A stretch of DNA of 64,000 nt from Candidatus Lustribacter sp. (GCA_965277805.1 OZ255842.1:1888001-1952000); one strand, 5' to 3'. Positions 28,081 through 41,124 are shown, counted from the stretch's first letter. Translations and numbers: made by a program. Notes: generated by a model not told the origin, from the sequence alone.

Positions 28081-29040
28081 ATGAATCACGTTTCACGGAC
28101 CTCGTTTATCGTCGGCAGTGCCGTCCTTGCGGTGACGGCACAGGCGGCACTTGGACAAACGCCGGCGCACCTGGTCGTCGGGGCATCGGCGATCGACGGC
28201 GCGATCGGGTTGATCACGGGACAGAACAACGGATATTTCAAAAAGAATGGGGTCGACGTCGAGCACGTCGTCAACAATGGTGCGGCGAGTGCGGCGGGGG
28301 TCGCCGGCGGCTCGATTCAACTTGCGGCGTCGAACGTCGTCACGCTGATCAAAGCGCACCTGAACGGGGTGCCGTTCCAGATCGTCGCTCCCAGCAGCAT
28401 GTACACGAGCGACAATCCGACGCAAGTGCTCGTCGTGCGCAATGACGCCAACTTCAAAACCGCCGCCGACCTCAACGGCAAGACGATCGGCGTCACGGCG
28501 ATCGGCGATCTGCTCTCCGTTGCGACGCTCGCGTGGATCGATCAGAACGGCGGAACATCGAGCACCGTCAAGCTCATCGAGATCCCGCCGACCTCGCAGA
28601 CCGCAACGCTCGTTGCCGGCCGCGTGGAAGCCGCATCGCTGGCGGAGCCGTTCCTCTCCCAAGCGCTCGCCAGCGGATCGGTGCGCATCTTCGGGAAGAT
28701 CTTCGATGCCATCGCACCGCGCTTCTTACAAGCGGCTTATTTTGGCAAGGCCGATTGGATCAACGCCAACCCCGATGCCGTGCAGCGCTTCGTGCGCGGG
28801 CTGCTCGAAGCCAATACCTGGGCGAACGCCCATGAAGATAAGACGCTGCCGTGGCTGATCGACTACGCCAAGCTCGATCCCGCCGTCGCTAAACACGCCC
28901 GGCGCGAACACTTCGGCGAATCGATCGACCCGGCATCGGTCCAGGCCGAAATCGACGTGCTCGCCCGCACGAAGGCCATCGACCACGGCTTCGACGCGCG
29001 CGACATGTTCAGCCCCGTCGTCCTCAATATGCGAAAATAG
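28081..29040 (+). CDS. SsuA/THI5-family substrate-binding protein
   Basis: Signal peptide; GYFKKNGVDVE, DLNGKTIG, WIDQNGG. Confidence 0.85.
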   Translation: MNHVSRTSFIVGSAVLAVTAQAALGQTPAHLVVGASAIDGAIGLITGQNNGYFKKNGVDVEHVVNNGAASAAGVAGGSIQLAASNVVTLIKAHLNGVPFQIVAPSSMYTSDNPTQVLVVRNDANFKTAADLNGKTIGVTAIGDLLSVATLAWIDQNGGTSSTVKLIEIPPTSQTATLVAGRVEAASLAEPFLSQALASGSVRIFGKIFDAIAPRFLQAAYFGKADWINANPDAVQRFVRGLLEANTWANAHEDKTLPWLIDYAKLDPAVAKHARREHFGESIDPASVQAEIDVLARTKAIDHGFDARDMFSPVVLNMRK

Positions 29041-29452
29041 CTAACGCGCTGCGGCGCGCGATGAGCGCATCCAGTGACCATCGTCCCGGACCGGCAAGCA
29101 CGATTGCGAGCGCGCCGATCAGGTACACGCTCGGTAATTCCATGCTGTCACCACCCGCACTCACGAGCGGTGTATGTGCCGGGATGTGCACGGCGGCAAT
29201 TGCAACCAACATGTCGATCGCGATCAAGCCGGCCGCGACGCGCGAGGCAATTCCGATTACGAGCGCCCATCCGCCGAAGAACTCCGCCACCGCTGCGGTC
29301 TCTTGCACGAATGCCGGCGGATGGAACGGCATTGCGTTCATCCAGGTCGCCGCATGCGCAATCTTCGGTGCACCGTGCAGCACGAACGCGATTCCGATGA
29401 CCAGCCGGAGCAACAGGAGCGCGATTCCGAAACGGTTCGATTCAGTAAACAT
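29024..29452 (-). CDS. DoxX family membrane protein
   Basis: LLRL..G..F..HG..K, AEF.GG, GPG.WSLD. Confidence 0.88.
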   Translation of the reverse strand: MFTESNRFGIALLLLRLVIGIAFVLHGAPKIAHAATWMNAMPFHPPAFVQETAAVAEFFGGWALVIGIASRVAAGLIAIDMLVAIAAVHIPAHTPLVSAGGDSMELPSVYLIGALAIVLAGPGRWSLDALIARRSALAIFAY

Positions 29453-29526
29453 GACCCAACGTATATCCATTAGACCTGAACAAACCATGAGACGCTGGCA
29501 GGCCGTCACTTGCGACGCAAAGCCGA

Positions 29527-30483
29527 TTAGCGGTTGAGTACTTGAGCCGCGATGACATCCTTAGCTGGGAACGATGCTTTGATCAGACCGTACTTTGCCG
29601 AGCAGTCGATGAGGGGTTGCAGCAATGCCGGGTCGACACGTTGGGGGTAGTAGGCTCGCTTTTGGTTGGGGCTGATCGGTTGTTTTGAGTAGGTGTTGAG
29701 GATTTTGGCGGATGCGTCATGGTTTTTGTTGGCCCAATCGGCGGTTTCGGCAATGGCGTCGGCAAAACGGCGGACGGCGTCGGCGTGGGTGGTGACGTAG
29801 TCTTGCAGGCAGAACCAACCGCCGCCGAGCCATTCATCGCCGATCGCGTCGTTCACGTTGGCGACGACGTGCGCGCCGTTCGCCAGCAGCGCGGATTGCG
29901 CGGGCTCTTCTGCGACGACGGCATCGACGCGACCCGTCGCGAGCGCGCCGCCCATGTCGGCGTACGGCATTTCGACGAATTTTACGGCGTCTTGCGCCAG
30001 GCCGTTCTTGTCGAGATACGCCCACATCGCCATTTCGCTCACGCCCTTGAGGCTCGTGACGGCAACGGTTTTACCGACGAGGTCTTTGGCGGTGTGAATG
30101 GGTGCGGTCTGCAATGCGAGGAGCGCGCCCGTCGGCTGTTTCGATGAGTATGCGGCCGACGGCGCGACCAGCACAAACGGGATGCCGCGTTCGCGCGCGT
30201 TGGCGAGCGTGACGACGGCAGCGGTTCCGAAATCGAGCGAACCGCCGACCACGGCTGCAGCCGTGGCGGGACCGTTGGCCATCACCACGAGATCGACGTC
30301 GAGGTTGTGCTTCTTGAACAACCCTAGTGCCTGTGCGTAAAAGACCGTGCCGCTGATGTCGATCGGTACTGCCGCGACGCGCAGTTTCGTCAGCGTCTGT
30401 GCGCTTGCCGGGCCGTGAAGTGCGTACTGCGCAGCAGCAGCCGAGCCGGCGAGAATCAGCGAACGGCGGGAGAGTTCACGCAC
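29527..30483 (-). CDS. SsuA/THI5-family substrate-binding protein
   Basis: SRRSLI Tat leader; GLFKKHNLDV, DLVGKTVAV, KFVEMP. Confidence 0.85.
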   Translation of the reverse strand: MRELSRRSLILAGSAAAAQYALHGPASAQTLTKLRVAAVPIDISGTVFYAQALGLFKKHNLDVDLVVMANGPATAAAVVGGSLDFGTAAVVTLANARERGIPFVLVAPSAAYSSKQPTGALLALQTAPIHTAKDLVGKTVAVTSLKGVSEMAMWAYLDKNGLAQDAVKFVEMPYADMGGALATGRVDAVVAEEPAQSALLANGAHVVANVNDAIGDEWLGGGWFCLQDYVTTHADAVRRFADAIAETADWANKNHDASAKILNTYSKQPISPNQKRAYYPQRVDPALLQPLIDCSAKYGLIKASFPAKDVIAAQVLNR

Positions 30484-30498
30484 GGGACGTCCTTTCGT

Positions 30499-31440
30499 TC
30501 ACGCGAGATTGGCGACCAGATCTCCGCTCGTGAGGCGCTTGTCGAGCGCACCGTATTTGTACATGACCGAAAGCACGGAGTCCAAATACCGCGGCTCGAG
30601 CGACGTTGCGTAGATGCAGCGCGTCATCCTGGTCAGCGTCGCCGGGTCCATCTTCGAGTACTTGCCTAGGATCTGGCCCGCCTCGACCTCGTGCGTGTTC
30701 GCCCAGCGTGCGGTGTCGTAAATTGTTGCGACGAACCGCTTCACCAGCGGCAAGTTCGCCTTGAGAAAGTCGGTCGTAACGAACCAGTTCGCGATCAGGA
30801 ATTGCGGCGCGATCGTGGCGTAGGCGTCGCCGACCACGCGCATCGTCTTACCGACGCCGTCGGAGAGGTAAGGTTCACCGACCAGCGCGGCATCGAACGT
30901 GCCGCGTGAGAGCGCCGCGGTCATCAGGCCCATCGGGGTTTCGACAAACTTCACCGTGCGCGAGTCGACGCCGTTGTGATCGAGCCAGACGCGCACGCCC
31001 ACCTCGGTCAGATCCTTGAGCGCGGTGACGGCGATCGTCTTGCCGATGAGGTCGTGCGGCGATTTCACCGGCGAATCGATCCCGGTCACGACGGCCGTGG
31101 TCGGCCGCTTGGCGGTGAAGAGCCCGCCGCCGGCAATGATCTTGAACGGTGCGCCGTGCGTGATCGAGAGCGCGAGGTTCGCGGTATTGGAGATGCCCAC
31201 GTCGAGCGCGCCGGCGGCCACCATCGTTGCTGAGTTGGCACCGGACCCGACCATCGAGAGCGCAACGTTGAGTTGGGCTTGAGTGAAGAACCCTTGGTCG
31301 GCGGCGAAGTAGCCTTCCGCGTACGCGTCGGCTGTCGCGACGCTCACGCGCAGCGGCGCGGCTTGCGCGCGCACGACCGCGGGCATTGCGATGCTGGCTG
31401 CGGCGCCGGCGGTGAGGCCTAGAACCTCATGCCGCTTCAC
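30499..31440 (-). CDS. SsuA/THI5-family substrate-binding protein
   Basis: Leader ending MPAVVRAQ; DLIGKTIAV, WLD.NGVD...VKFVE.P. Confidence 0.85.
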   Translation of the reverse strand: MKRHEVLGLTAGAAASIAMPAVVRAQAAPLRVSVATADAYAEGYFAADQGFFTQAQLNVALSMVGSGANSATMVAAGALDVGISNTANLALSITHGAPFKIIAGGGLFTAKRPTTAVVTGIDSPVKSPHDLIGKTIAVTALKDLTEVGVRVWLDHNGVDSRTVKFVETPMGLMTAALSRGTFDAALVGEPYLSDGVGKTMRVVGDAYATIAPQFLIANWFVTTDFLKANLPLVKRFVATIYDTARWANTHEVEAGQILGKYSKMDPATLTRMTRCIYATSLEPRYLDSVLSVMYKYGALDKRLTSGDLVANLA

Positions 31441-31446
31441 GCGGGC

Positions 31447-32223
31447 TTACGCAACGCTGACGCTCCGGCGGCGAATGAAGTCGATGATGAGGTCGGCCGC
31501 TTCAGCGGCTGCTCCGCCGGCGCCGGCTTTGATGAAGCCATGCGATTCGCCCGGGAAGAGCCGCAGCTCGATCTCACCCCCGGCGCCCTCGTACGCCGCA
31601 GCGAAGTTCGGCGCCATGTCCGGCGGGACGTTTTCGTCGGCGAGGCCTTGCACGACGAGCACCGGCGGCAGCGCACGCGCTTGGCCGGATACGACGATGT
31701 GCTGCGGGCTGGCGGCGATCATCGTCGCTTCGTCGCCGAAATATGCTTCGTGCGCGGCGATCAAGTTGGCCGCGCCGCGGTCCTTCGCCATGCGATAGCG
31801 CGCGAGCGGATCGCTGATCGGCCAGCAGCCAATCGCAAACGCAAGCTCTTCTCCCGGCCGCGCGTCGATCGCGCACAGCAGCGCGGTCTGTCCACCGCTC
31901 GAAACGCCGAAGATGCCCACGAGCGAGGGCAACGTGCGCACTTGCTCGGCGTGTTCCTTGAGCCAGCGAACGGCGCTGCGTACGTCGTCGGCGGCACCCG
32001 GGTAGACGGCCACCGGCGGCATTCGGAACTCGACCGCGAGAACGACCACGCCCGCGTCGCACAGCGTGCGGCAGAGGTCGGCGGTGGCGGCGGGGCTGCT
32101 CGTGGTCCACGCGCCGCCGTGCACCATCACCGCGGCGGGGAACGGTCCGTCGCCGGACGGCTGATAGAGCGTCGCGTTCAGGGCTAAGTCGCCGTGACGG
32201 GCGTAGACGAGTTCCGACTCCAT
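31447..32223 (-). CDS. Alpha/beta hydrolase (HSL/esterase family)
   Basis: HGGAW oxyanion motif, GVSSGG nucleophile, D..VP, HGF. Confidence 0.88.
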   Translation of the reverse strand: MESELVYARHGDLALNATLYQPSGDGPFPAAVMVHGGAWTTSSPAATADLCRTLCDAGVVVLAVEFRMPPVAVYPGAADDVRSAVRWLKEHAEQVRTLPSLVGIFGVSSGGQTALLCAIDARPGEELAFAIGCWPISDPLARYRMAKDRGAANLIAAHEAYFGDEATMIAASPQHIVVSGQARALPPVLVVQGLADENVPPDMAPNFAAAYEGAGGEIELRLFPGESHGFIKAGAGGAAAEAADLIIDFIRRRSVSVA

Positions 32224-32259: not shown

Positions 32260-32880
32260 CTAAGCTGAGCGGAGTCCCCGGTTGCGGTAGCCCATCGTTT
32301 TCACGAACGCCTCGACGTACTCGGGCTCGAACTGCGTGCCGCTGCAGTTCATCAGTTCGGCCAGCGCCTGCGCCGGCGTGCGTACGCGTGAGTACGGACG
32401 AGACACGGTCATGGCGTGGAAAGCGGCGGCGACGGCGATGATCCGCGATTCGTAAGGGATCTCGCTGCCGAGCAGGCCGTCGGGATAGCCGCGGCCGTCG
32501 ACGCGCTCGTGATGCGAGCGGATGATCGCGCGGTACTTTTCCAGCTGCGGGAAGCCGGCGACAATCGTGGCGCCGAGATCCGGATGACGGCGCATCTGCT
32601 GCCATTCCGACTCATCGAGCGAGCCGGGCTTCTCGAGCACGTGGAGCGAGATTGTCGTCTTCCCGATGTCGTGCAAGCGGGCGGCCGTCACGATGCGGTT
32701 GATGCTGATCTCCTCGAGCTCGAGGGTCGTCGCGAGGCGGCGAGCGAGCAGGCCAACAGCATCGAGATGTGAAGCCGTGATCGGGTCGCGCACGCGCACC
32801 ATCTGTACAAGTCCGTCGACGATCGCTTGGTCACCGTCGGCCAGAGACGACTGTAGCCAAAGTTCCGTAGCTTTATCCAC
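32260..32880 (-). CDS. HD-GYP domain protein (stand-alone; metal-ligand Asp replaced by Ala)
   Basis: LHDIGK, HP, HHER.DGRGYP, IAVAAAFHAMT..RPY; start GTG 32880. Confidence 0.85.
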   Translation of the reverse strand: MDKATELWLQSSLADGDQAIVDGLVQMVRVRDPITASHLDAVGLLARRLATTLELEEISINRIVTAARLHDIGKTTISLHVLEKPGSLDESEWQQMRRHPDLGATIVAGFPQLEKYRAIIRSHHERVDGRGYPDGLLGSEIPYESRIIAVAAAFHAMTVSRPYSRVRTPAQALAELMNCSGTQFEPEYVEAFVKTMGYRNRGLRSA

Positions 32881-32891
32881 GTGTATGTGTT

Positions 32892-33803
32892 CTAGGCGGT
32901 TTGTGCGATACGGCCGCGGTAGCCGAGCATTGCAGTGAATGCGGTGACGAGTTCGGGGTCGAACTGCGTGCCGCTGCCGGCGACGATCTGCTCCATCGCT
33001 TCGTTGGTCGTACGCGTCGTGCGATAGGGGCGGGCAAGCGTCATCGTGTGGAAGGCATCGCACATGGCGACGATCCGGCTCTCGAGCGGGATCTCTTCGT
33101 GCGCGGTTCCGGCGGGATAGCCGCGGCCATCGAACCATTCGCGGGTGGCCCGAACCAGGGGGGCGATTTCGGCCAGCGCCGGCATCGCTTCGAGCGTCGC
33201 GGCGCCGATCGCCGGATAGCTCTGCACTTCTTCGCATTCGGCGGCGGTGAGCGGCATCGGCTTATTCATGATCGAGCGCGAGATGCGCATCTTGCCGAGG
33301 TCGTGCAGCCGAGCGGTGAGGGTGACGCGGGAGACCGTTGCGCTCTCGAGGCCCATGTTAACGGCCAAGCGAGTGGCAAGTTCAGCGGTGATTTCGCAGT
33401 GGTCGGCGAGTTCAGGATCGTGCAGCCGGAGGGCGGCGACGAGGCCATCGGCCTGCGCAGCGGTGGTTGCATCGACGGTGTTCTTCGCGGAAGCCATGGC
33501 ACCCGAGGTGCGCAGATAATCGAGCGCTTCCTGGCGGAGCTTGTTAGCGAAGCGGACGCGATCAGCGAACCCTTCGCCTGGTTGCGTCATCTCGTGGATG
33601 ACGGTGTCGAGCGTACCTAAGATTTCTTCACCGCTTGGCATTCCACGTTCGAAGTCGATCCAGGCGCGAACGCGACGAGGATTGTTCATCCGTTGAGCTT
33701 CGGCCACGATCTTCACGCATGAATCGATCGTGTGGGCAGCCCACGGGAGCGAACGGTACAACGACTGGGGTAGCGATTCGAGAACGTCGCGCGAGACGGT
33801 CAT
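32892..33803 (-). CDS. HD-GYP domain protein with N-terminal helical extension (degenerate)
   Basis: LHDLGK, YP in place of HP, TREW in place of HHE, DGRGYP, CDAFHTMT..RPY; SD GAGGA before ATG 33803. Confidence 0.85.
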   Translation of the reverse strand: MTVSRDVLESLPQSLYRSLPWAAHTIDSCVKIVAEAQRMNNPRRVRAWIDFERGMPSGEEILGTLDTVIHEMTQPGEGFADRVRFANKLRQEALDYLRTSGAMASAKNTVDATTAAQADGLVAALRLHDPELADHCEITAELATRLAVNMGLESATVSRVTLTARLHDLGKMRISRSIMNKPMPLTAAECEEVQSYPAIGAATLEAMPALAEIAPLVRATREWFDGRGYPAGTAHEEIPLESRIVAMCDAFHTMTLARPYRTTRTTNEAMEQIVAGSGTQFDPELVTAFTAMLGYRGRIAQTA

Positions 33804-33849
33804 CTCATCCTCTTCCATAGAAGCAGAAAAAGCGGTGTGAAGCATTGTC

Positions 33850-33933
33850 TTACAACGGGGGAAGAATTGTCGTCTGAATCGTGACGAACGCGACGAGCGC
33901 AAACGCCAGAGCTTGGGCGAGCAGAAGTTTCAC
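33850..33933 (-). CDS. 27-aa hydrophobic signal-peptide-like ORF, putative signalling pro-peptide (MKLLLAQALAFALVAFVTIQTTILPPL)
   Basis: GTG start with SD GAGG 7 nt upstream; TAA stop; basic N-terminus, hydrophobic core and Pro-rich tail; has its own predicted promoter. Confidence 0.7.
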   Translation of the reverse strand: MKLLLAQALAFALVAFVTIQTTILPPL

Positions 33934-33967
33934 AGGGGAACCTCACAAGAGTAGAGTGGTCCCCCAG

Positions 33968-34014
33968 ATCGTAAGCCTATCTAGACCGGAATCATCTCCC
34001 AAGATATGGGGAGA
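33968..34014 (-). promoter_or_regulatory. Predicted activator-dependent promoter: 20-bp palindrome TCTCCCAAGATATGGGGAGA (33995-34014) plus -10 TACGAT (33973-33968)
   Basis: Perfect 6-bp arms; centre about -43.5 relative to the implied +1, matching lux-box geometry. Confidence 0.55.
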
Positions 34015-34027
34015 AAGTGACAAGCCG

Positions 34028-36556
34028 CTATTCGAGCCAGCCCATGTCCTGAGCATAGGCAACGGCCGCAGCGCGCCCAGAGCAGCCAATCTTCGAACAC
34101 GCCGACTTCAAATGGCTGAGCACAGTGTGGCTTGAGCGCCCTAGGCGGTCAGCCACGTCCGCGGTGGTCCCCCCGCTTCGAAGCTCGCGCAAAACTTCGA
34201 GCTCGGTCCTAGTTAACTGCGTAATCGTAGCCGGCGCCAAGATCCGTCTTAAGAAGCGGGCGTGGCCATCGAGCTGAAGCGCGATTAGAGGCTCGGTCAA
34301 CTGACTTAACTGGCGGACTGTCGTCGTTTGCCTCGACGTCGAGCAAATTGTGACGATCACTGTAAGAAGGCTCGCGTCGCGAGGCGTAACAGCTGAAAAG
34401 TCCGGAGTCGGGGCACGACGAGCAGCACGACCGCGACCCAGTAGCCACTGGCCAAGAGAATTATAAACTTGCGCGTATGCCAAGAGCCGACGGCTCTCAA
34501 AATCACTATCTGCGGGCATCAGTATCGGCCGACCAACCAAGGCAGTGGCCTCGTCACGCCTCGACGTAGCTAAAATCAATCCCAAAAGAGCGTCCCTAAA
34601 GACTCGTTCGGACGGTGACAGCGCGCTATTATCTAACGCAGATAACATGCTCACGGCTAATGGCTCGTTGCCGCGACCGGCTGCCCTTATTGCCTTGACA
34701 TAGTGGAGCCACATTAGATTTCTTGCACTACGCTCAGCACCCAGCTCGACGAGACGCCTTTCACTAGCCTCGTAGAGATCGTCGTCCCCTTGATCAGCGG
34801 CAATTACAAGCTGACATTCCAAGCCATGTATCTGCATCGCTCGGTCGCCCGCGGCGATGGCTGATCGTGTGCAAGCTTCTGCATATCTTCTCGAGAGCAG
34901 AGTATCCGGATAAACGGCGGAGGCCACGCCTTGTAAAACGCTATAACCACGAGCAGCGATACTCTCGAGCCCAAGTGAGTGGGCAAGCTGAACGCTCTCC
35001 GTTGCGTATCCTTCCGCGACCATTGGTTCACCAAGGCACCAGTGAGCGTAAGCGAGGCGATGGCTAACGATAGCCCGCATCTCCACTGACCCTGCGTCCA
35101 GCGCGTTAGAGCAAAACCCAATTGCATCTCGCGAAACCGTCACTTCTCCAGCCAATGCACCGGCTACGGCCAAGGCAGCAGCAGCGTTTAATCGGACTGT
35201 TCCCTCAATGTGCTCATCAACCATCAGGGCACGCAACGAGGGTACGGCCTCCTTTGGACGCATAACGCTTACGGACAGATTAGCTGACTGGAGGGTAAGA
35301 GCACCGCGCATTTGGTGCCCAACGTCTCCTTCCAGCGCCCTTTCGAGCTCTCGTTTCGCAACCGCATACGCGCCATCGATCGAAAGCGCGAAGCCGCGCA
35401 AACCTGTTATGATCGGATGATCGCGATAGGCGCGCGGAAAGCGATTGATCGCAGCCAATATGTCCGAGCGTCTACCATTCTCAATGCGATCGATACCGTG
35501 CCGCGTCAGTAGCGCGATTGCTTGGTCCCATGCCTCGGCGCGGATATGCATCGCAATCGCCCCGTCTACATCACCAAACTTCTCGAGGGCACGCGCGAGT
35601 CGCGCAACTAATATCGAATGACGTTCGCTATCTGCTTGACTACGCTCTAAAATGAATTCACGGAACAGCTCATGTACCTTGAAATTACCATTGCCTATTC
35701 GCGACAATAGAGGTAAGCGTAGTTGCAGGCGTTCCAGCGCCAAGCGTGACTCCGGAAAACCGGCCGCACCAAGTATACGGGGCTTCAAATCACTTAGATG
35801 AGCGGCCGCCTCGCAAAGCCCTTGCTCATCGGCTGATAAATGAGACCAGACCTGCTCTTCTATAAATTCAAAAAGGACGCGTCTCGTTCGTATGCGCAAC
35901 GAGGGAAGCGCTTGTGTCCGTTCCCAAGTTCCCAACGATAACCGCACTGCCAAAGGCCAGCCGCCTACGTCGGTTACGAGATCCTGAATCGAACTACTAT
36001 CGATTTGAACGTTTAACGTTAACGCTACCGCGGCGCCTTCACTAACCTCAAATGCGAGGTCCTCTGCGGTAATTGGCAGCGCCATATAGTCTCGCGCCAA
36101 CCAAGTACCAACCGGCAATTCCGGCGTTTCACGCGAAACGATGACCCAACGGACAGTGGGAACGGTTGCTTCAATCACGTGCCGAACAAAGCGGAGACTG
36201 TTGGCGTCTGCCGAGATTCGCTGGAAGTCCTCGAATACGATCGGGGTTTCTACCGATCGCAACCTCTGCGAACACCACTCTGCTAAATGGACTAAATTCT
36301 CTTCCGTTTGAGGTCTAGCGAGGTGTGCACTCAGTGCACGCATTGAACGGGGAGAGACCTTTTCAATCAGAAGTCGCGCCACGGTTTCTGGGGTGACGCC
36401 ATCTTCGGGGAGATAAATCCAATGGGCTTCGGCACCGAATGCATCAGTGGCAGCCTCGCTCTTCCCGAAACCAGCAGGTGCGATGAGCATCGCAAGTCCG
36501 CGATTCGCCGAGTCTTGTAGGGCTTCGGTTATCCGTTCGCGCGGATAAATAGACAT
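34028..36556 (-). CDS. MalT-like STAND ATPase / helical-repeat / LuxR-HTH transcriptional regulator
   Basis: APAGFGKS Walker A, IVFEDFQ Walker B, GWPLA, HELFREF, C-terminal LT.TE.EVL..L..G.....VA..L..S..TV..H. Confidence 0.9.
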   Translation of the reverse strand: MSIYPRERITEALQDSANRGLAMLIAPAGFGKSEAATDAFGAEAHWIYLPEDGVTPETVARLLIEKVSPRSMRALSAHLARPQTEENLVHLAEWCSQRLRSVETPIVFEDFQRISADANSLRFVRHVIEATVPTVRWVIVSRETPELPVGTWLARDYMALPITAEDLAFEVSEGAAVALTLNVQIDSSSIQDLVTDVGGWPLAVRLSLGTWERTQALPSLRIRTRRVLFEFIEEQVWSHLSADEQGLCEAAAHLSDLKPRILGAAGFPESRLALERLQLRLPLLSRIGNGNFKVHELFREFILERSQADSERHSILVARLARALEKFGDVDGAIAMHIRAEAWDQAIALLTRHGIDRIENGRRSDILAAINRFPRAYRDHPIITGLRGFALSIDGAYAVAKRELERALEGDVGHQMRGALTLQSANLSVSVMRPKEAVPSLRALMVDEHIEGTVRLNAAAALAVAGALAGEVTVSRDAIGFCSNALDAGSVEMRAIVSHRLAYAHWCLGEPMVAEGYATESVQLAHSLGLESIAARGYSVLQGVASAVYPDTLLSRRYAEACTRSAIAAGDRAMQIHGLECQLVIAADQGDDDLYEASERRLVELGAERSARNLMWLHYVKAIRAAGRGNEPLAVSMLSALDNSALSPSERVFRDALLGLILATSRRDEATALVGRPILMPADSDFESRRLLAYAQVYNSLGQWLLGRGRAARRAPTPDFSAVTPRDASLLTVIVTICSTSRQTTTVRQLSQLTEPLIALQLDGHARFLRRILAPATITQLTRTELEVLRELRSGGTTADVADRLGRSSHTVLSHLKSACSKIGCSGRAAAVAYAQDMGWLE

Positions 36557-36803
36557 GCTAAGTCAGCCCTATGCGCTCAAATTGAAGGGAGGCAATGGAA
36601 CTCCACGGGGAAGATCGCGTCGGCCACCAACCCGAGCAATCCTTGAGTGTGTCGGGCAACACTAGGCTAGGGGCTTAGGCACTCGACCGCTCGCGACCCT
36701 TTACGATATCGTGACGAATCTAGTCCCAGCGAATTACAAGGTTCCAGCATCAACCGAGAGCCAAAGACCGGACTTGCAGCCAAGCCCCTGCATGGATTCA
36801 GGC

Positions 36804-39434
36804 ATGAAAAAGAGTCCCCAAAGGAAGGTCCGCCCTCTTAATCAGCGCGCTGCAATAAATCGCGAGTTGACGCGACAGAGCTCTGCGCCCGCGAGGCTGC
36901 GGATTATTGAAAGATTACTCTCCGCCACGAGCTATCCGATTACAGCAGTTATCGCGCCGGCGGGTTTCGGAAAAACGACGGCCATCAACGATCTGCTGGA
37001 GCAACAGCGCTCCGCATCCGTTATAATTTCGACCCCGAACGATACAAATATCGAGAAGTTTATGCAGTCGCTCGCACAATCATTTGCTCCTCACTTCCCG
37101 GAGTTGGCAACACCACCCAGCGAAGTTAATGCCGGCGCTCAAAGTGGTGGGAGCAATATCGACCTTTATGTTGCGTGGGCAAACAGGCATTTGCGCGATA
37201 TAAACTTCACGATTGCAGTCGATGATCTGCAGCGTGCGGATCATGACCCGTCAATAGCGGCCTTCCTAACGCGACTTGCTGATATCTCAAAAGACCACCT
37301 AAAGTGGATCTTCAGTTCACGGACGCACGGTCATTTACCGTTGACCCGATGGCAAGCCTATGGTTATGCGGATGCGGCTATCACCGCAGATGATCTCCGC
37401 ATGACTTCAGATGAAGCCAACCAGTTTGCAAGAGCCGTCGGCAGCCCGGCAACGTCAGAGCAAATCGACGAATGGGTCGCTATAACGCAGGGCTTTCCGG
37501 TTCCACTTACCTATGCGATCAGAGTTTCCGCAAGCCGTGGAACCGCCGACGGCATTATGGATGGAACGCGATCAATCACTTTTCGCTTCCTTGCCGAACA
37601 TGTCTGGGAATCACTATCTTCCGAAGAACGTCGCCTCCTTGAACTTGCATCATTTTTACCGCCCTTGCACACTCATCGCTATGAAGAAGCCGGCGTTGAC
37701 AACGCGACCGGGATAATTTCTCGCTTATGCAATGACATTGCATTCCTTTCATTGACCCCCGCCGGAATCTTTTCGATGCACGATTTATTCCGGGACTTCC
37801 TACGTCAACAGATATTAGCAGCCGGATTAACACGACAAAATGAACGATTGAACTGCGCAGCAAATCTATTGCTAAATTCAGGCCGCTTCGACGACGGCTT
37901 TTCTCTTTTGATTGAGTTTCTAAGTCCGGTCGAACTTGCTCATACCATTGAACGATTTCCCTCAGCAAATTGCAATATAGCTGTTACGCGCGACATTGTC
38001 GAATCTACCGGGGAGCTAAAAGTAGAAAGCCTCGGATTAACGCTACTAGTATTGCAGGCTGAGCACTGGTCGTGGATGGGAGACGCGAATAGGGCACAAC
38101 GATACGGTCAGGAAATCCTACGGCGGCCCGACGCATCATCTGGGCAGATGATGAGCGCAATCAGCTCGATTTTTAGAACGACGAATTATCAAGGACAGGA
38201 GGTTCACAAGTATTGGCTCTCAGTATTTCCTTTGATATTTGATCGGCTGGGTGACGCAGATCGGATTTGGGCTCGCGCATACCAAGTTATGTTACTTTCG
38301 CGGTATCCTGAGACCCAGGGAGTAGCCCGCTCATTCGCTAGCGAGGTACTTAGCCAAACCAGCAAGTTATCCGCAAGAGCGCACATTGATGTTCTTATCG
38401 TACTCGGCGTAGCTTTTTACTATCTTAACGATAATGTTGACGGCATGGACGTTTTACGTGAAGCCGCTGACTTGGCTGAATTATTCAGCGATGCGAGAGA
38501 ACGGGCTCGCGCACTTAACAACTACGGGGTGATGTTAGATCGGGTTCGCGATGCGAGGGTGGAGTCGATCTTCGCGCCATTGCGGGACCTCGTAGAGCGC
38601 ACGGGGTCTTGGCGCTTTTCGCACACAAGCCACTGGCTCCCGGCTCAATATTATGCAGTTCAGGGTGATTTAGGTGCGACGAATGAGGCTCTGACGCTCC
38701 AGTCCGCGGTGATCGCGAGCGAAGAGTCCGAAAAGGAGCGTTTGTCTTCAATTCGCCGACATTGCTTAGACCTATGCAATCTGATAAAGGAAGATTATCG
38801 CGCAGTCATTTCCGACTTTGCCTCTGCAACTCCCTATAAACTGCTAGAGTTAGAATACGACCGCCTCGCGTGCGCAGCATTAGCATACGGTTTTTTGTCC
38901 AACACGATTGACTGTGAAAAACTACTTGCAAAATTAAAGCAGCTTCGTCATTCAAGTCCGGTCTTTGCTCTGTACAGCGGTCGCGAGACTATCCTGATTG
39001 AAATTACTGCGTTGTGTATGGTTGGCCGCTGGACCCAGGCAAGACAGTTGAATGAACAATTTAGGGGGCAGATCGCGTCTATAGCACCGCTCGAATACGC
39101 GCTCGAGCTCTTATGTCTTGGGCCACCCTTCTTGAATGTTTCAGCTGCACTCGAGCCTTGTCTCGGGAAACCATATATGGGACTTCCCGCTTTAACCATC
39201 AAAAGGCTGATTGATCGTCAGCTGGCGGATCATTTAAAGCAACACCTGACGGCCGCTGAAATGGACGTGCTTCGCATGGTTACAGCGGGCAAATCAAACA
39301 AAGAGATCGCGAATGCACGCAAGCGTAGTGAGGAGACGGTTAAGCGACAAGTAGCCTCACTATATAGAAAACTAGGCGTCGAAAATCGTACGAGCGCGGT
39401 CGCCGTTGCGCGGGAACGAGGCATCCTAGACTAG
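36804..39434 (+). CDS. Second MalT-like STAND ATPase / TPR-like / LuxR-HTH regulator
   Basis: APAGFGKT, IAVDDLQ, HDLFRDF, TPR-like ARALNNYG, LT.AE.DVL..V..GKSNKEIA....S.ETVK..V..LY.KLGV.NR. Start uncertain (36711, 36804 or 36867). Confidence 0.9.
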   Translation: MKKSPQRKVRPLNQRAAINRELTRQSSAPARLRIIERLLSATSYPITAVIAPAGFGKTTAINDLLEQQRSASVIISTPNDTNIEKFMQSLAQSFAPHFPELATPPSEVNAGAQSGGSNIDLYVAWANRHLRDINFTIAVDDLQRADHDPSIAAFLTRLADISKDHLKWIFSSRTHGHLPLTRWQAYGYADAAITADDLRMTSDEANQFARAVGSPATSEQIDEWVAITQGFPVPLTYAIRVSASRGTADGIMDGTRSITFRFLAEHVWESLSSEERRLLELASFLPPLHTHRYEEAGVDNATGIISRLCNDIAFLSLTPAGIFSMHDLFRDFLRQQILAAGLTRQNERLNCAANLLLNSGRFDDGFSLLIEFLSPVELAHTIERFPSANCNIAVTRDIVESTGELKVESLGLTLLVLQAEHWSWMGDANRAQRYGQEILRRPDASSGQMMSAISSIFRTTNYQGQEVHKYWLSVFPLIFDRLGDADRIWARAYQVMLLSRYPETQGVARSFASEVLSQTSKLSARAHIDVLIVLGVAFYYLNDNVDGMDVLREAADLAELFSDARERARALNNYGVMLDRVRDARVESIFAPLRDLVERTGSWRFSHTSHWLPAQYYAVQGDLGATNEALTLQSAVIASEESEKERLSSIRRHCLDLCNLIKEDYRAVISDFASATPYKLLELEYDRLACAALAYGFLSNTIDCEKLLAKLKQLRHSSPVFALYSGRETILIEITALCMVGRWTQARQLNEQFRGQIASIAPLEYALELLCLGPPFLNVSAALEPCLGKPYMGLPALTIKRLIDRQLADHLKQHLTAAEMDVLRMVTAGKSNKEIANARKRSEETVKRQVASLYRKLGVENRTSAVAVARERGILD

Positions 39435-39842
39435 CTACGGTAGCGTAGCACTTTGCCAGATGGTGCCGTCGGCGAATGAGACCTGAACGACCCGAACTTC
39501 GGGAGTTCCGTTAACGTCAAACGGGTTCACTGGGAAGCCGTGGCGGATCAGCACGCCTTTCGCGAACCTCCCGACGTCGTTGAATCGATCGACGAAGCCA
39601 TTCGCGTCCACGGCAAAGACGACGTCCGTTGCATCGACGTTCGACTGGTTTTCGAACGTTATTTCAACCGATGCCGGTAGAATGTTCATGTCGTGGATGG
39701 CGTCCTGATAGAAGCCTCCGATAAACTGCGCATTTACGACTTGAATCGAGCCGGCTTCTGCAGCGCTAGCTGAGGGCAGCCCCACCGTAGAGGCGGCGAG
39801 GATCGCCGCCCCGAGGAAAGCCGCCGAAAGTTTGCTGTTCAT
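39435..39842 (-). CDS. Secreted hypothetical protein (beta-rich)
   Basis: Sec signal ending ASA; I.F.N......DV.F, DVG.F..GV.I.H, V.V.FADG..W; leaderless (TACAAT-N6-ATG). Confidence 0.7.
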   Translation of the reverse strand: MNSKLSAAFLGAAILAASTVGLPSASAAEAGSIQVVNAQFIGGFYQDAIHDMNILPASVEITFENQSNVDATDVVFAVDANGFVDRFNDVGRFAKGVLIRHGFPVNPFDVNGTPEVRVVQVSFADGTIWQSATLP

Positions 39843-39948
39843 GGATCGATTGTACCCAACCTACACCCTCGGTACGGACGGCCAGCATGGGGCCAAGGAA
39901 ATCCGTTCCCGTCGCGAACCGCCGGTTATGGAACGTGCTTTCAACTGG

Positions 39949-41124
39949 ATGACGATTCGGTCGCTACTAGTCGCGATTGCGCTCATGGCCGGCTTCATTC
40001 CGGCAGTCGGGGCAACAAAGCCCGATCCCTACATCATATATGTGATCGATCCGCTCAGCGGGCCGAACGCCTACTTCGGGCAGCAACTCCAACGAGTGCT
40101 CCAGCTCTATGAGAACGTCGCGAACAACAGCGGCGGCATCAAGGGGCAGCCGATTCACTTCCAGTTCCTCGACGATGAATCGAAGGCGCAAGTCGCGGTC
40201 GAACTGTTCGGCCAGCTGGCGGCCAAGCACGTGCCGGCGATTCTCGGGCCCGACTCGCAGTCCGAGTGCCGTGCAGTGCTGCCGCTCACCTCCCACGGAC
40301 CCGTCGTCTACTGCTTCACGCCCGGTATCTTCCCACCGCCCGGGTATTTGTTCTCCGCTGCGGCTGGCATCGATCACACGGAACACGTGCTGCTCAAGTA
40401 CGCGCACGATAGCGGCGCGAAGCGGCTCGCGCTGCTTGTCGAAACCGATGCCACCGGCCAGAGCTCGGACAAACTTCTGCCGCAGACGTTGGCGAAGCCC
40501 GACCTCGCCGGCATGGACGTCGTCGTCACGCAGCACTTTGAGCCGTCAGCGCTCAGCGTCTCGGCGCAAGTCGCCAGCATCAAAGCAGCGAATCCGCAGT
40601 ATCTCTACGTGTCGGCCACCGGCACACCGTTCCAAACGGTGCTGCGCGGGCTAATCGACGGCGGACTGAACATCCCGGTCGTCACGTCGAGCGCAAACAT
40701 GGATCTCAAGGTGCTCACGCCTTTCGGCACGTCGCTGCCGCCGCTGGCATTCAACGCGCCACCGTCGTGGAACGTCGCTGCGATGCATGACAAGCCGCTC
40801 AAAGCGGTTGTCGATGCCTATCAAGGCGCCTACAAGTCCGGCGGCGGCATCCCATCGCCGAACGATGAGATGGCCTGGGATCCAGCGAGCATTATCGTGG
40901 CCTCGCTGCGCAAGCTCGGCACCAGTGCGACGGCAGATCAAATCCACGACTTCATCGAGAACCTGCACGACTTTCCGGGCCTTGGCGGCTACTACGATTT
41001 CCGCACCGGCAACCAGCACGGCTTGGGCGAGGACGCGGTGATCGTCGTGTCTTACGACTCCGCGCACCAGCGCTTCATTCCGGTTAGCAAACCGGGTGGT
41101 GAGCCGCTAGCCTCGCACCCTTGA
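39949..41124 (+). CDS. LivJ/Peripla_BP_6-type substrate-binding protein
   Basis: Signal peptide; PLSGP.A..G, N..GGI.G.PI, G..G.Y.F....HGL. Confidence 0.85.
   Translation: MTIRSLLVAIALMAGFIPAVGATKPDPYIIYVIDPLSGPNAYFGQQLQRVLQLYENVANNSGGIKGQPIHFQFLDDESKAQVAVELFGQLAAKHVPAILGPDSQSECRAVLPLTSHGPVVYCFTPGIFPPPGYLFSAAAGIDHTEHVLLKYAHDSGAKRLALLVETDATGQSSDKLLPQTLAKPDLAGMDVVVTQHFEPSALSVSAQVASIKAANPQYLYVSATGTPFQTVLRGLIDGGLNIPVVTSSANMDLKVLTPFGTSLPPLAFNAPPSWNVAAMHDKPLKAVVDAYQGAYKSGGGIPSPNDEMAWDPASIIVASLRKLGTSATADQIHDFIENLHDFPGLGGYYDFRTGNQHGLGEDAVIVVSYDSAHQRFIPVSKPGGEPLASHP

Follow-up and report, generated by a model that had tools for sequence, protein, structure and literature searches.

In streptococci and enterococci, the Rgg/SHP, ComR/ComS(XIP) and PrgX/iCF10 systems rely on hydrophobic peptides of 17-35 residues, whose C-terminal 7-11 residues constitute the signal. 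In systems of the Rgg/SHP type, the peptide gene adjoins that of a cytoplasmic helical-repeat receptor, which is itself a transcription factor and exerts a positive feedback on the peptide gene. The PlcR/PapR, NprR/NprX, Rap/Phr and AimR/AimP systems use pro-peptides of about 40 residues or longer with a Sec-type signal, and their receptors are devoid of an NTPase module. To our knowledge, peptide pheromones read by cytoplasmic receptor-regulators are, in print, a speciality of the Bacillota with one receptor fold (RRNPP). The known inducers of MalT/LAL regulators, for their part, are small metabolites, e.g., maltotriose. The present analysis deals with a 64,000-nt stretch of the 5.5-Mb genome of Candidatus Lustribacter sp. 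(hereafter the window), which belongs to the phylum Eremiobacterota, abundant in bogs and poor soils and counting very few cultured members. The window contains a cassette in which a MalT-like STAND/LuxR regulator gene is followed by a small open reading frame (ORF) encoding a hydrophobic peptide and by two HD-GYP genes. Our results indicate that the small ORF is very probably a conserved gene, linked to the regulator and preceded by a candidate activator-dependent promoter. They also make it possible, with a probability that we estimate at about 0.4, that the regulator drives this promoter and that the peptide, probably through its tail, is the ligand of the regulator.

The elements of the locus are the following.

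34028-36556, minus strand: STAND/LuxR regulator gene (842 amino acids, MalT-like), proposed activator and proposed peptide receptor.

33995-34014, minus strand: 20-bp palindrome TCTCCC-N8-GGGAGA, candidate operator, with a proposed centre at about -43.5.

33968-33973, minus strand: -10-like hexamer TACGAT, with no -35 match upstream.

33941-33944, minus strand: Shine-Dalgarno motif GAGG, separated by a 7-nt spacer from the GTG start, as read from the sequence.

33933-33850, minus strand: small ORF of 27 codons plus TAA, with a GTG start, a hydrophobic body and a tail ending in TTILPPL.

32892-33845, minus strand: HD-GYP protein 1, 317 amino acids (Pfam HD_5, E 1.2e-31), with a degenerate metal site.

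32260-32880, minus strand: HD-GYP protein 2, about 206 amino acids (Pfam HD_5, E 5.5e-32), with the full HD...HHE...DGRGYP set.

36711-39434, plus strand: second STAND/LuxR gene, divergent, 907 amino acids (Pfam GerE, 9.9e-14; AAA_22, 2.8e-08).

Each element that the initial annotation had listed for the cassette (ORF, Shine-Dalgarno, palindrome, -10-like hexamer, regulator and both HD-GYP genes) is found at the position claimed, and the start codon of the small ORF, which had been given as ATG, reads GTG. In the window, the TAG stop of the regulator gene is followed after 13 nt by the palindrome, TCTCCCCATATCTTGGGAGA, and, 21 nt further, by the TACGAT hexamer. The ATG of HD-GYP1 opens 4 nt past the stop of the small ORF, and HD-GYP2 probably starts at the GTG at position 32880.

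The first question is whether the small ORF is a real gene. The 1.5 kb located 3' of the regulator gene was taken from 80 further loci, hand-picked from the 150 rows listed out of 364 matches. This sample is not a random one, since genomes that are unpublished and many of the rows from g41, an over-represented genus, were left aside. L092, with no stop near the end of the match, was also dropped, which left 79 loci. A strict filter was applied to the first 300 nt: it demanded an upstream start codon, one Pro or more among the nine final residues, and a 12-residue window with a mean hydropathy of at least 2.2, lying within the last 30 residues of the ORF and ending 4-12 residues before the stop. 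On the forward strand, such an ORF is present in 40/79 downstream regions, 70-130 nt past the regulator stop, vs. 0/79 on the reverse strand and 0/79 in a coding stretch further downstream used as a control, and 20 shuffles of the same sequences give a mean of 0.65 matches. A second filter, demanding a Shine-Dalgarno motif, retrieves 32 ORFs on the forward strand vs. 1 on the reverse strand and adds L062, L078 and L103; as judged by eye, L048, L052 and L115 carry the small ORF too. The matches are spread over 18 genera, and a Shine-Dalgarno motif stands at the right spacing in nearly all loci with the ORF. These counts overstate the statistical weight, because related loci are not independent, but the strand asymmetry does not depend on this. 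The prediction that a conserved small ORF would be found beside homologous regulators is thus borne out.

Closer and more distant relatives point in the same direction. Six same-genus loci share the same order, i.e., regulator, palindrome, hexamer, Shine-Dalgarno, small ORF and two HD-GYP genes. In L006, L007 and L008, whose regulators are 82, 81 and 73% identical to that of the window, the ORF retains the GTG and the Shine-Dalgarno, and indels of 3n nucleotides leave its frame intact; its sequence is altered, yet still hydrophobic, and ends in ...LPPPL, ...IPPIG and ...IPPFG, respectively. The motifs TGAGGT and GTGAAA are conserved in L001, L006, L007, L008 and L010. At L010 (G003:C5:678042-682625), where HD-GYP1 is 98% identical, the regulator is interrupted in frame by ten stops and, past a run of C, the small ORF no longer has its stop, which may reflect either a joint decay of receptor and peptide or homopolymer assembly errors. 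Among 15 distant loci (25-31% identity), L002, L011, L018, L019, L021 and L023 each have, at the same place, an ORF of 20-42 codons that is preceded by a Shine-Dalgarno and encodes a hydrophobic body and a Pro-rich tail; L002 is a paralog in the window's own genome, so that this second regulator too has its own small ORF behind it. Another two cases, L015 (G028) and L020 (G036), belong to unpublished genomes and are left out of account. When that genome is scanned for Shine-Dalgarno-led hydrophobic ORFs with a PPx tail, five distinct ORFs are left, including that of the window.

The pattern of substitutions is also that of a coding sequence. Over 43 same-length pairs of 60-99% nucleotide identity, the pooled ratio of non-synonymous to synonymous differences per site (pN/pS) is 0.425 in the frame of the ORF, vs. 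1.05 and 2.38 in the other two frames, i.e., purifying selection is seen in its own frame only, as expected if the initial annotation was right to consider it as coding. In the clade with (I/V)TPPDPF tails, the last seven codons have a pN/pS of 0.09 at a pS of 0.68. In a second clade, in which tails are diverse (...DMPGGGN, ...CMPGDPQ, ...CDAPIGQG, ...CTMPANGD), the ratio is 0.73. Ten ATG-started members of the family were looked up as exact sequences in a collection of 15 billion proteins and none is present, and the peptide has no match in Pfam. We conclude, on these comparative grounds, that the small ORF very probably represents a real, translated and unannotated gene family, present in one family of Eremiobacterota.

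The peptide gene is linked to the regulator more than to any particular downstream gene. A same-strand HD-GYP gene follows in 47/80 loci, and the spacing between the peptide gene and the HD-GYP genes is usually tight. According to the strict filter, 33 loci have both the peptide ORF and the HD-GYP gene, 7 have the peptide ORF without HD-GYP (the next gene encoding a 150-amino-acid protein), 14 have HD-GYP without the ORF, six of them carrying a peptide that the filter missed, and 26 have neither. As the ORF is present before an HD-GYP gene or the 150-amino-acid protein gene alike, the peptide gene tracks the regulator and not one target. The 150-amino-acid protein, found in the TPPDPF clade, has no match in Pfam and matches only unnamed clusters in the ESM Atlas.

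The regulator itself is well defined. Its GerE helix-turn-helix (HTH) domain is located at residues 780-835 (Pfam E 5.9e-10), and its AAA_22 match is weak. Residues 1-309 align to the structure of the E. coli MalT NOD (8bob, E 4.8e-09), with 20% identity between the regulator of the window and MalT over the matched NOD, and G29, G31 and K32 of the P-loop (GxxGKS) are invariant in an alignment of 40 regulator homologs. The AlphaFold2 model (mean predicted local distance difference test score 87.4) consists of an alpha/beta NTPase module, paired helices from about residue 310 to 770, then the HTH; its top Foldseek matches are a solved STAND protein whose sensor is of the TPR type, 6mfv (TMt 0.68, E 3.6e-11), and 8bob (TMt 0.79). 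The match to the MalT NOD, the model and the Foldseek results together show that the label of MalT-like STAND/LuxR protein is correct, and the regulator is a member of the MalT/LAL-type STAND regulators. In a tally of 401 genomes, including eight unpublished ones (G237, G266, G028, G036, G366, G209, G292 and G254), homologs with E values of at most 1e-25 are found in 256/296 genomes of the window's family and in 1/5 genomes of a sister family, and none is found among the 99 genomes searched from the other 19 families of the phylum.

The region between the regulator and the peptide gene has the features of a promoter awaiting an activator. The arms of the window's palindrome, TCTCCC and GGGAGA, are perfect and 8 nt apart; it has a single exact occurrence in the genome, the next best having 2 mismatches. 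It is kept in 6/6 same-genus loci as a 19-nt block with two variable central positions, between variable flanks, and the -10-like hexamer is kept in 5/6. A consensus scan of the gene strand of the window locus yields neither a sigma-70 promoter with a -35 element nor a terminator, and a -35 match is absent from the other loci too. For the commonest type of box among the regulators, a TAnnnT hexamer (TATCCT in 11 loci, TATCGT in 9, TATGGT in 4 and others in 7) starts 22-23 nt past the 18-bp box core in 30/31 loci, and the start codon of the ORF lies 35-46 nt past this hexamer; the spacing in the window is equivalent. If the hexamer is the -10 element, the centre of the box would lie near -43.5, the position of a class II activator replacing the -35 element. 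The promoter before the peptide gene thus looks activator-dependent.

Most of the regulator genes are followed by a palindrome of 18-20 bp, for which three types of sequence were identified. The box moreover varies with the DNA-binding domain. In a table of 90 loci, classes were defined by the residue following T-V/I in the recognition helix of the HTH. The box CTAsTkAA-N(2-6)-TTmAsTAG accompanies the helix ...YT[VI]Q.HI... in 34/37 loci. The helix ...T[VI]R.H... goes with CTCGTCC-N4-GGACGAG (4 loci) or with the same half-sites 18 nt apart (7 loci), hence in 11/14 loci; L086 also has a box of this class and is outside this count because its helix was missed by the pattern. The helix of the window's genus, ...HTVLSH..., is associated with TCTCCC-N8-GGGAGA in 5/5 loci, and none of the three box types is found with ...T[VI]D.H... 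(0/12 loci). Loci with Q-, R- or L-type helices never have a box of another class, the sole cross-class case being L124, where a D-type helix is found with a one-mismatch match to the window's box type. Searched genome-wide with the same tolerance, the three short-spaced box patterns have 110, 204 and 10 occurrences in 11 Mb (both strands), i.e., a chance expectation well under 0.01 per 400-nt region. The activator-dependent promoter that had been postulated before the peptide/HD-GYP operon is consequently backed both by the fixed distance from box to -10 and by the co-variation of box and recognition helix.

Another arrangement is found in genus g41, where a near-invariant inverted repeat with 12-bp arms, CTCGTCCATGCC-N8-GGCATGGACGAG, lies over the start codon of the gene for the 150-amino-acid protein (L053, L070, L072, L076, L079, L083, L086 and L091, about 200-260 nt past the regulator stop). 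Its outer half-sites are those of the CTCGTCC-N4-GGACGAG box of other clades, and it could be either an operator or a hairpin hiding the start codon.

The HD-GYP proteins encoded downstream are of the cyclic-dinucleotide phosphodiesterase kind. HD-GYP2 aligns, with all its H..HD..H..HHE..DGxGYP motifs, to 5z7c, a 3'3'-cyclic GMP-AMP phosphodiesterase and its best match in the PDB (E 4.6e-30), and then to the cyclic di-GMP phosphodiesterases 4mcw and 4r8z. HD-GYP1, when compared to 5z7c, keeps HD and GYP, and S-Y and T-R stand in place of the H and HH of this enzyme. The phosphodiesterase motifs are therefore complete in the second protein only, as the first one is devoid of the H and HHE residues; HD-GYP1 is probably not catalytic and may be a degenerate, regulatory paralog. 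Its N-terminal 130 residues match no family.

The peptides were compared in a set of 45, with GTG and TTG starts read as Met. They range from 19 to 30 residues, with a median of 22. The longest stretch free of D, E, K, R, N, Q, H and P comprises a median of 15 residues and at most 22, and a median of 6 residues comes after it. The tail, of 4-8 residues, is Pro-rich: PP is found in the last eight residues of 29/45 peptides and at least two Pro in 36/45, a single Pro not being counted as evidence because the filter required one. The last residue is Gly in 20/45.

All these results are compatible with the following mechanism, whose steps are not equally secure. In a first step, which we consider likely, an oligomer of the STAND/LuxR regulator would bind the palindrome and activate the peptide/HD-GYP operon, as LuxR does at the lux box or MalT at MalT boxes. 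In a second step, put forward tentatively and at somewhat less than even odds, the peptide, most likely its C-terminal 6-8 residues freed from the hydrophobic part, would be the ligand of the TPR-like sensor, and its binding would result in a closed loop of positive feedback, as known for Rgg/SHP, ComR/XIP and PrgX/iCF10. In a third step, more doubtful, the peptide would leave the cell and be re-imported, the output being the degradation of a cyclic dinucleotide; as such a loop would pass through the cell exterior, it is proposed to report density. In this respect, the genome encodes 17 Opp-type binding proteins as well as site-2 proteases, which is permissive only. Of the peptide-based loop proposed by the initial annotation, the gene, its linkage to the regulator and the promoter stand, the basic N-terminus does not, and sensing, export and density remain proposals. 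The N-terminus in question contains a single Lys, a trait that is limited to the window's genus.

Tails and sensors were compared in 45 loci with full regulator sequences, the sensor being defined as residues 400-770. The sensor is the most divergent part of the regulator, with a mean amino-acid distance of 0.68, vs. 0.48 for the HTH and 0.45 for the NOD. The distance between tails is associated with that between sensors when the NOD is controlled for (partial Mantel r 0.31, with 1/2001 permutations as high), the NOD being a poor clock because it is very strongly constrained (ratio of non-synonymous to synonymous substitution rates, dN/dS, of 0.03); the association of tail with NOD, controlling for the sensor, is -0.04. 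In three loci separated by NOD distances of 0.04-0.05, the sensor distance is 0.28-0.35 and the tails are unrelated, which resembles a co-divergence of pherotypes; the NOD pS of these pairs is, however, already 0.53-0.56. A co-fold of residues 300-775 of the regulator, using a 40-row alignment, with the 27-residue peptide gives a score of 0.08 against a mark of 0.32; as the peptide is below the 30-residue calibration range, this score speaks neither for nor against binding.

Several observations weigh against the peptide being a secreted ligand of the regulator. The association between tail and sensor is confounded, as the pairs with near-identical NODs have a pS of about 0.55, and two pairs of loci, L071/L102 and L097/L112, have nearly the same tail although their sensors lie 0.39 and 0.47 apart. 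The dN/dS of the sensor, 0.07-0.16 for the pairs in which it is computable, gives no hint of positive selection. The first five residues contain no K or R in 41/45 peptides, the 4 exceptions all belonging to the window's genus, and a classical Sec or lipoprotein signal is therefore unlikely for most of them. No exporter, protease or permease gene linked to the locus was found. Concerning the gene and its promoter, the tail is kept (...FLPPM) in the L009 ortholog (58% identity) within an ORF of 19 codons that is devoid of a hydrophobic body and of a clear Shine-Dalgarno, and about 8/47 HD-GYP-linked loci show no such ORF. Finally, the co-variation of box and helix corresponds to only three or four independent switches, in clades that are related to one another, and the TPPDPF clade (genus g41) is devoid of a box before the peptide gene.

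The main alternative, which we hold to be unlikely, although it is the strongest of the competing explanations, would make the peptide an output of the system. Produced along with the HD-GYP enzymes, it would be a micro-protein residing in the membrane or a membrane-active effector, with a membrane protein or the membrane as such for its target, and the regulator would be switched on by another signal. The strongly hydrophobic body, with its uncharged run, the lack of N-terminal charge and the tight coupling to the downstream gene (4 nt from stop to start in the window) would all suit such a role; the promoter evidence fits it equally well, and characterized MalT-type regulators sense small molecules. 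The uncharged run does not, however, exceed 15 residues in 25/45 peptides, which is short for a membrane span, and constraint is strongest on the Pro-rich, soluble tail (pN/pS 0.09), the very part that L009 keeps while losing the body. Besides, the ORF tracks the regulator across differing downstream genes.

It is improbable that the ORF is instead a cis-acting leader peptide, in which Pro-Pro pausing near the stop, depending on EF-P or on proline supply, would set the translation or transcription of the downstream genes. The frequency of PP and of multiple Pro in the tails, the 4 nt separating the stop from the next start in the window and the hairpin with 12-bp arms covering the start codon of the next gene in the TPPDPF clade are in agreement with this explanation. 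It gives, however, no role to the conserved hydrophobic body, and the residue following PP varies widely (T, S, D, N, G, A, I, P, L). Nor is an alternative RNA structure evident in the window, where folding of the intergenic leader gives a z-score of -1.16, which is not notable, without a terminator, and it is with the regulator, not with a given kind of downstream gene, that the ORF is associated.

According to a still weaker candidate, to which we give very little credit, the ORF would encode the precursor of a peptide that undergoes modification or lipidation, be it a ribosomally synthesized and post-translationally modified peptide or a mini-lipoprotein cut at a lipobox-like Cys. A Cys is indeed present in 15/45 peptides, often in a lipobox-like ...[LVI][AV]AC right before the tail (L055, L056, L058-L060, L062, L066, L071, L073, L089, L097, L106 and L107). 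However, close relatives show Ala or Asp at this place, Cys being exchangeable within one clade, and 30/45 peptides have no Cys, which rules out a lipoprotein as a general explanation; no modifying enzyme is linked to the locus, the neighbors being HD-GYP proteins or the 150-amino-acid protein without family. Lastly, a chance open frame in a conserved non-coding leader, suggested by the short length, the GTG start in the window and the absence from the protein collections searched, is hardly conceivable in view of the 40/79 vs. 0/79 strand counts, the frame-specific purifying selection, the frame kept across indels and the correctly spaced Shine-Dalgarno of nearly all loci.

Several features of the surroundings can be mentioned. 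The G+C content dips to 0.47-0.59 across both STAND genes and the small ORF (33500-39500), vs. 0.60-0.69 in the flanks and 0.643 for the genome. The cassette is flanked by three NMT1/THI5-like and one Peripla_BP_6 solute-binding protein genes (28081-31440 and 39832-41124), none of them of the oligopeptide-binding type, and by an alpha/beta hydrolase gene (31447-32223). The divergent STAND/LuxR gene (36711-39434) has no small ORF behind it, and the next gene, convergent (39435-39842, minus strand), encodes a secreted-looking protein of 135 amino acids. This divergent paralog is kept as a neighbor within the genus, being present in L007, L008, L010 and L034. A search of the window locus and seven related loci against Rfam gave no match.

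A second branch of regulators, with the T[VI]D helix, has neither the small ORF nor any of the three boxes in the first 400 nt past the regulator stop (L057, L065, L080, L081, L085, L090, L095, L099, L104, L105, L108, L110, L113, L114 and L117-L120), and most loci with neither peptide ORF nor HD-GYP belong to it. In this branch, the regulator gene lies 3-78 nt before that of a lipoprotein of about 400 amino acids, which has a weak Peptidase_S8 match and an N-terminal linker with 2-5 perfect tandem units of 7-8 residues ending in ALPG, AMPG or GLPA. These tandem repeats could be a multi-copy source of peptides for the T[VI]D branch.

Taken together, the data allow us to propose, quite tentatively, a second and independent architecture of gene-encoded peptide signaling, in which a STAND/LuxR protein would be the receptor of an SHP-like peptide of 20-30 residues. 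Autoinduction would be lux-box-like, the output would concern a cyclic dinucleotide, and the system would be found nearly throughout one family of Eremiobacterota; the sister branch of regulators might read peptides cut from the tandem repeats of the subtilase-lipoprotein. In the literature searched, at the level of abstracts and in few subscription journals, we came across no STAND/LuxR regulator associated with a gene for a small peptide, nor any work on signaling in Eremiobacterota. If true, this proposal would join as fields the NLR-like ATPase switches and quorum sensing, provide a ligand class for a large group of orphan 'LAL' regulators, and give a first handle on cell-cell or self-signaling in Eremiobacterota. 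A nearly uncultured phylum would then possess peptide/receptor signaling that relies on a new class of receptor. Should the ligand model fail, there would still be a widespread, unannotated micro-protein family, apparently under the control of a STAND regulator; whatever the mechanism, a conserved gene family of 19-30 codons has been missed by gene callers.

The cassette can finally be compared with the systems mentioned above. As in LuxR-dependent promoters of class II, a palindrome of about 20 bp, near -42.5 in the case of the lux box, would take the place of the -35 element and is predicted to be bound by a GerE-type HTH dimer; unlike in LuxR, the ligand domain is not of the acyl-homoserine-lactone type and there is no LuxI. 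With E. coli MalT and the LAL regulators, the regulator shares the domain order (NOD, arm, helical-repeat sensor, LuxR HTH) and a target promoter that is predicted here to be activator-dependent and without a -35 element, but it differs from them by an adjacent and co-conserved peptide gene, none having been described for MalT/LAL in the literature reached. Regulators of this type oligomerize on repeated DNA boxes in dependence on inducer and ATP; the counterpart in the cassette would be the palindrome with its fixed promoter geometry. The position of the peptide gene, immediately 3' of the receptor gene and on the same strand, and its short C-terminal part, often containing Pro, recall PlcR/PapR or AimR/AimP. 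The closest likeness of the proposed signaling is to Rgg/SHP, ComR/XIP and PrgX/iCF10: the precursor is hydrophobic and of 20-odd residues, its C-terminal piece is presumably the active one, and the regulator itself would act as the receptor. Unlike in this group, the receptor combines a P-loop STAND NTPase and, at its C-terminus, a LuxR/GerE HTH, instead of an XRE-type HTH with TPR, most peptides have no Lys-rich N-terminus, and the phylum is Eremiobacterota and not Bacillota. Because the receptor fold and the type of HTH differ, the cassette is not a member of RRNPP; it nevertheless has the RRNPP feature of a small peptide gene that adjoins the receptor gene and is co-conserved with it across 18 genera.

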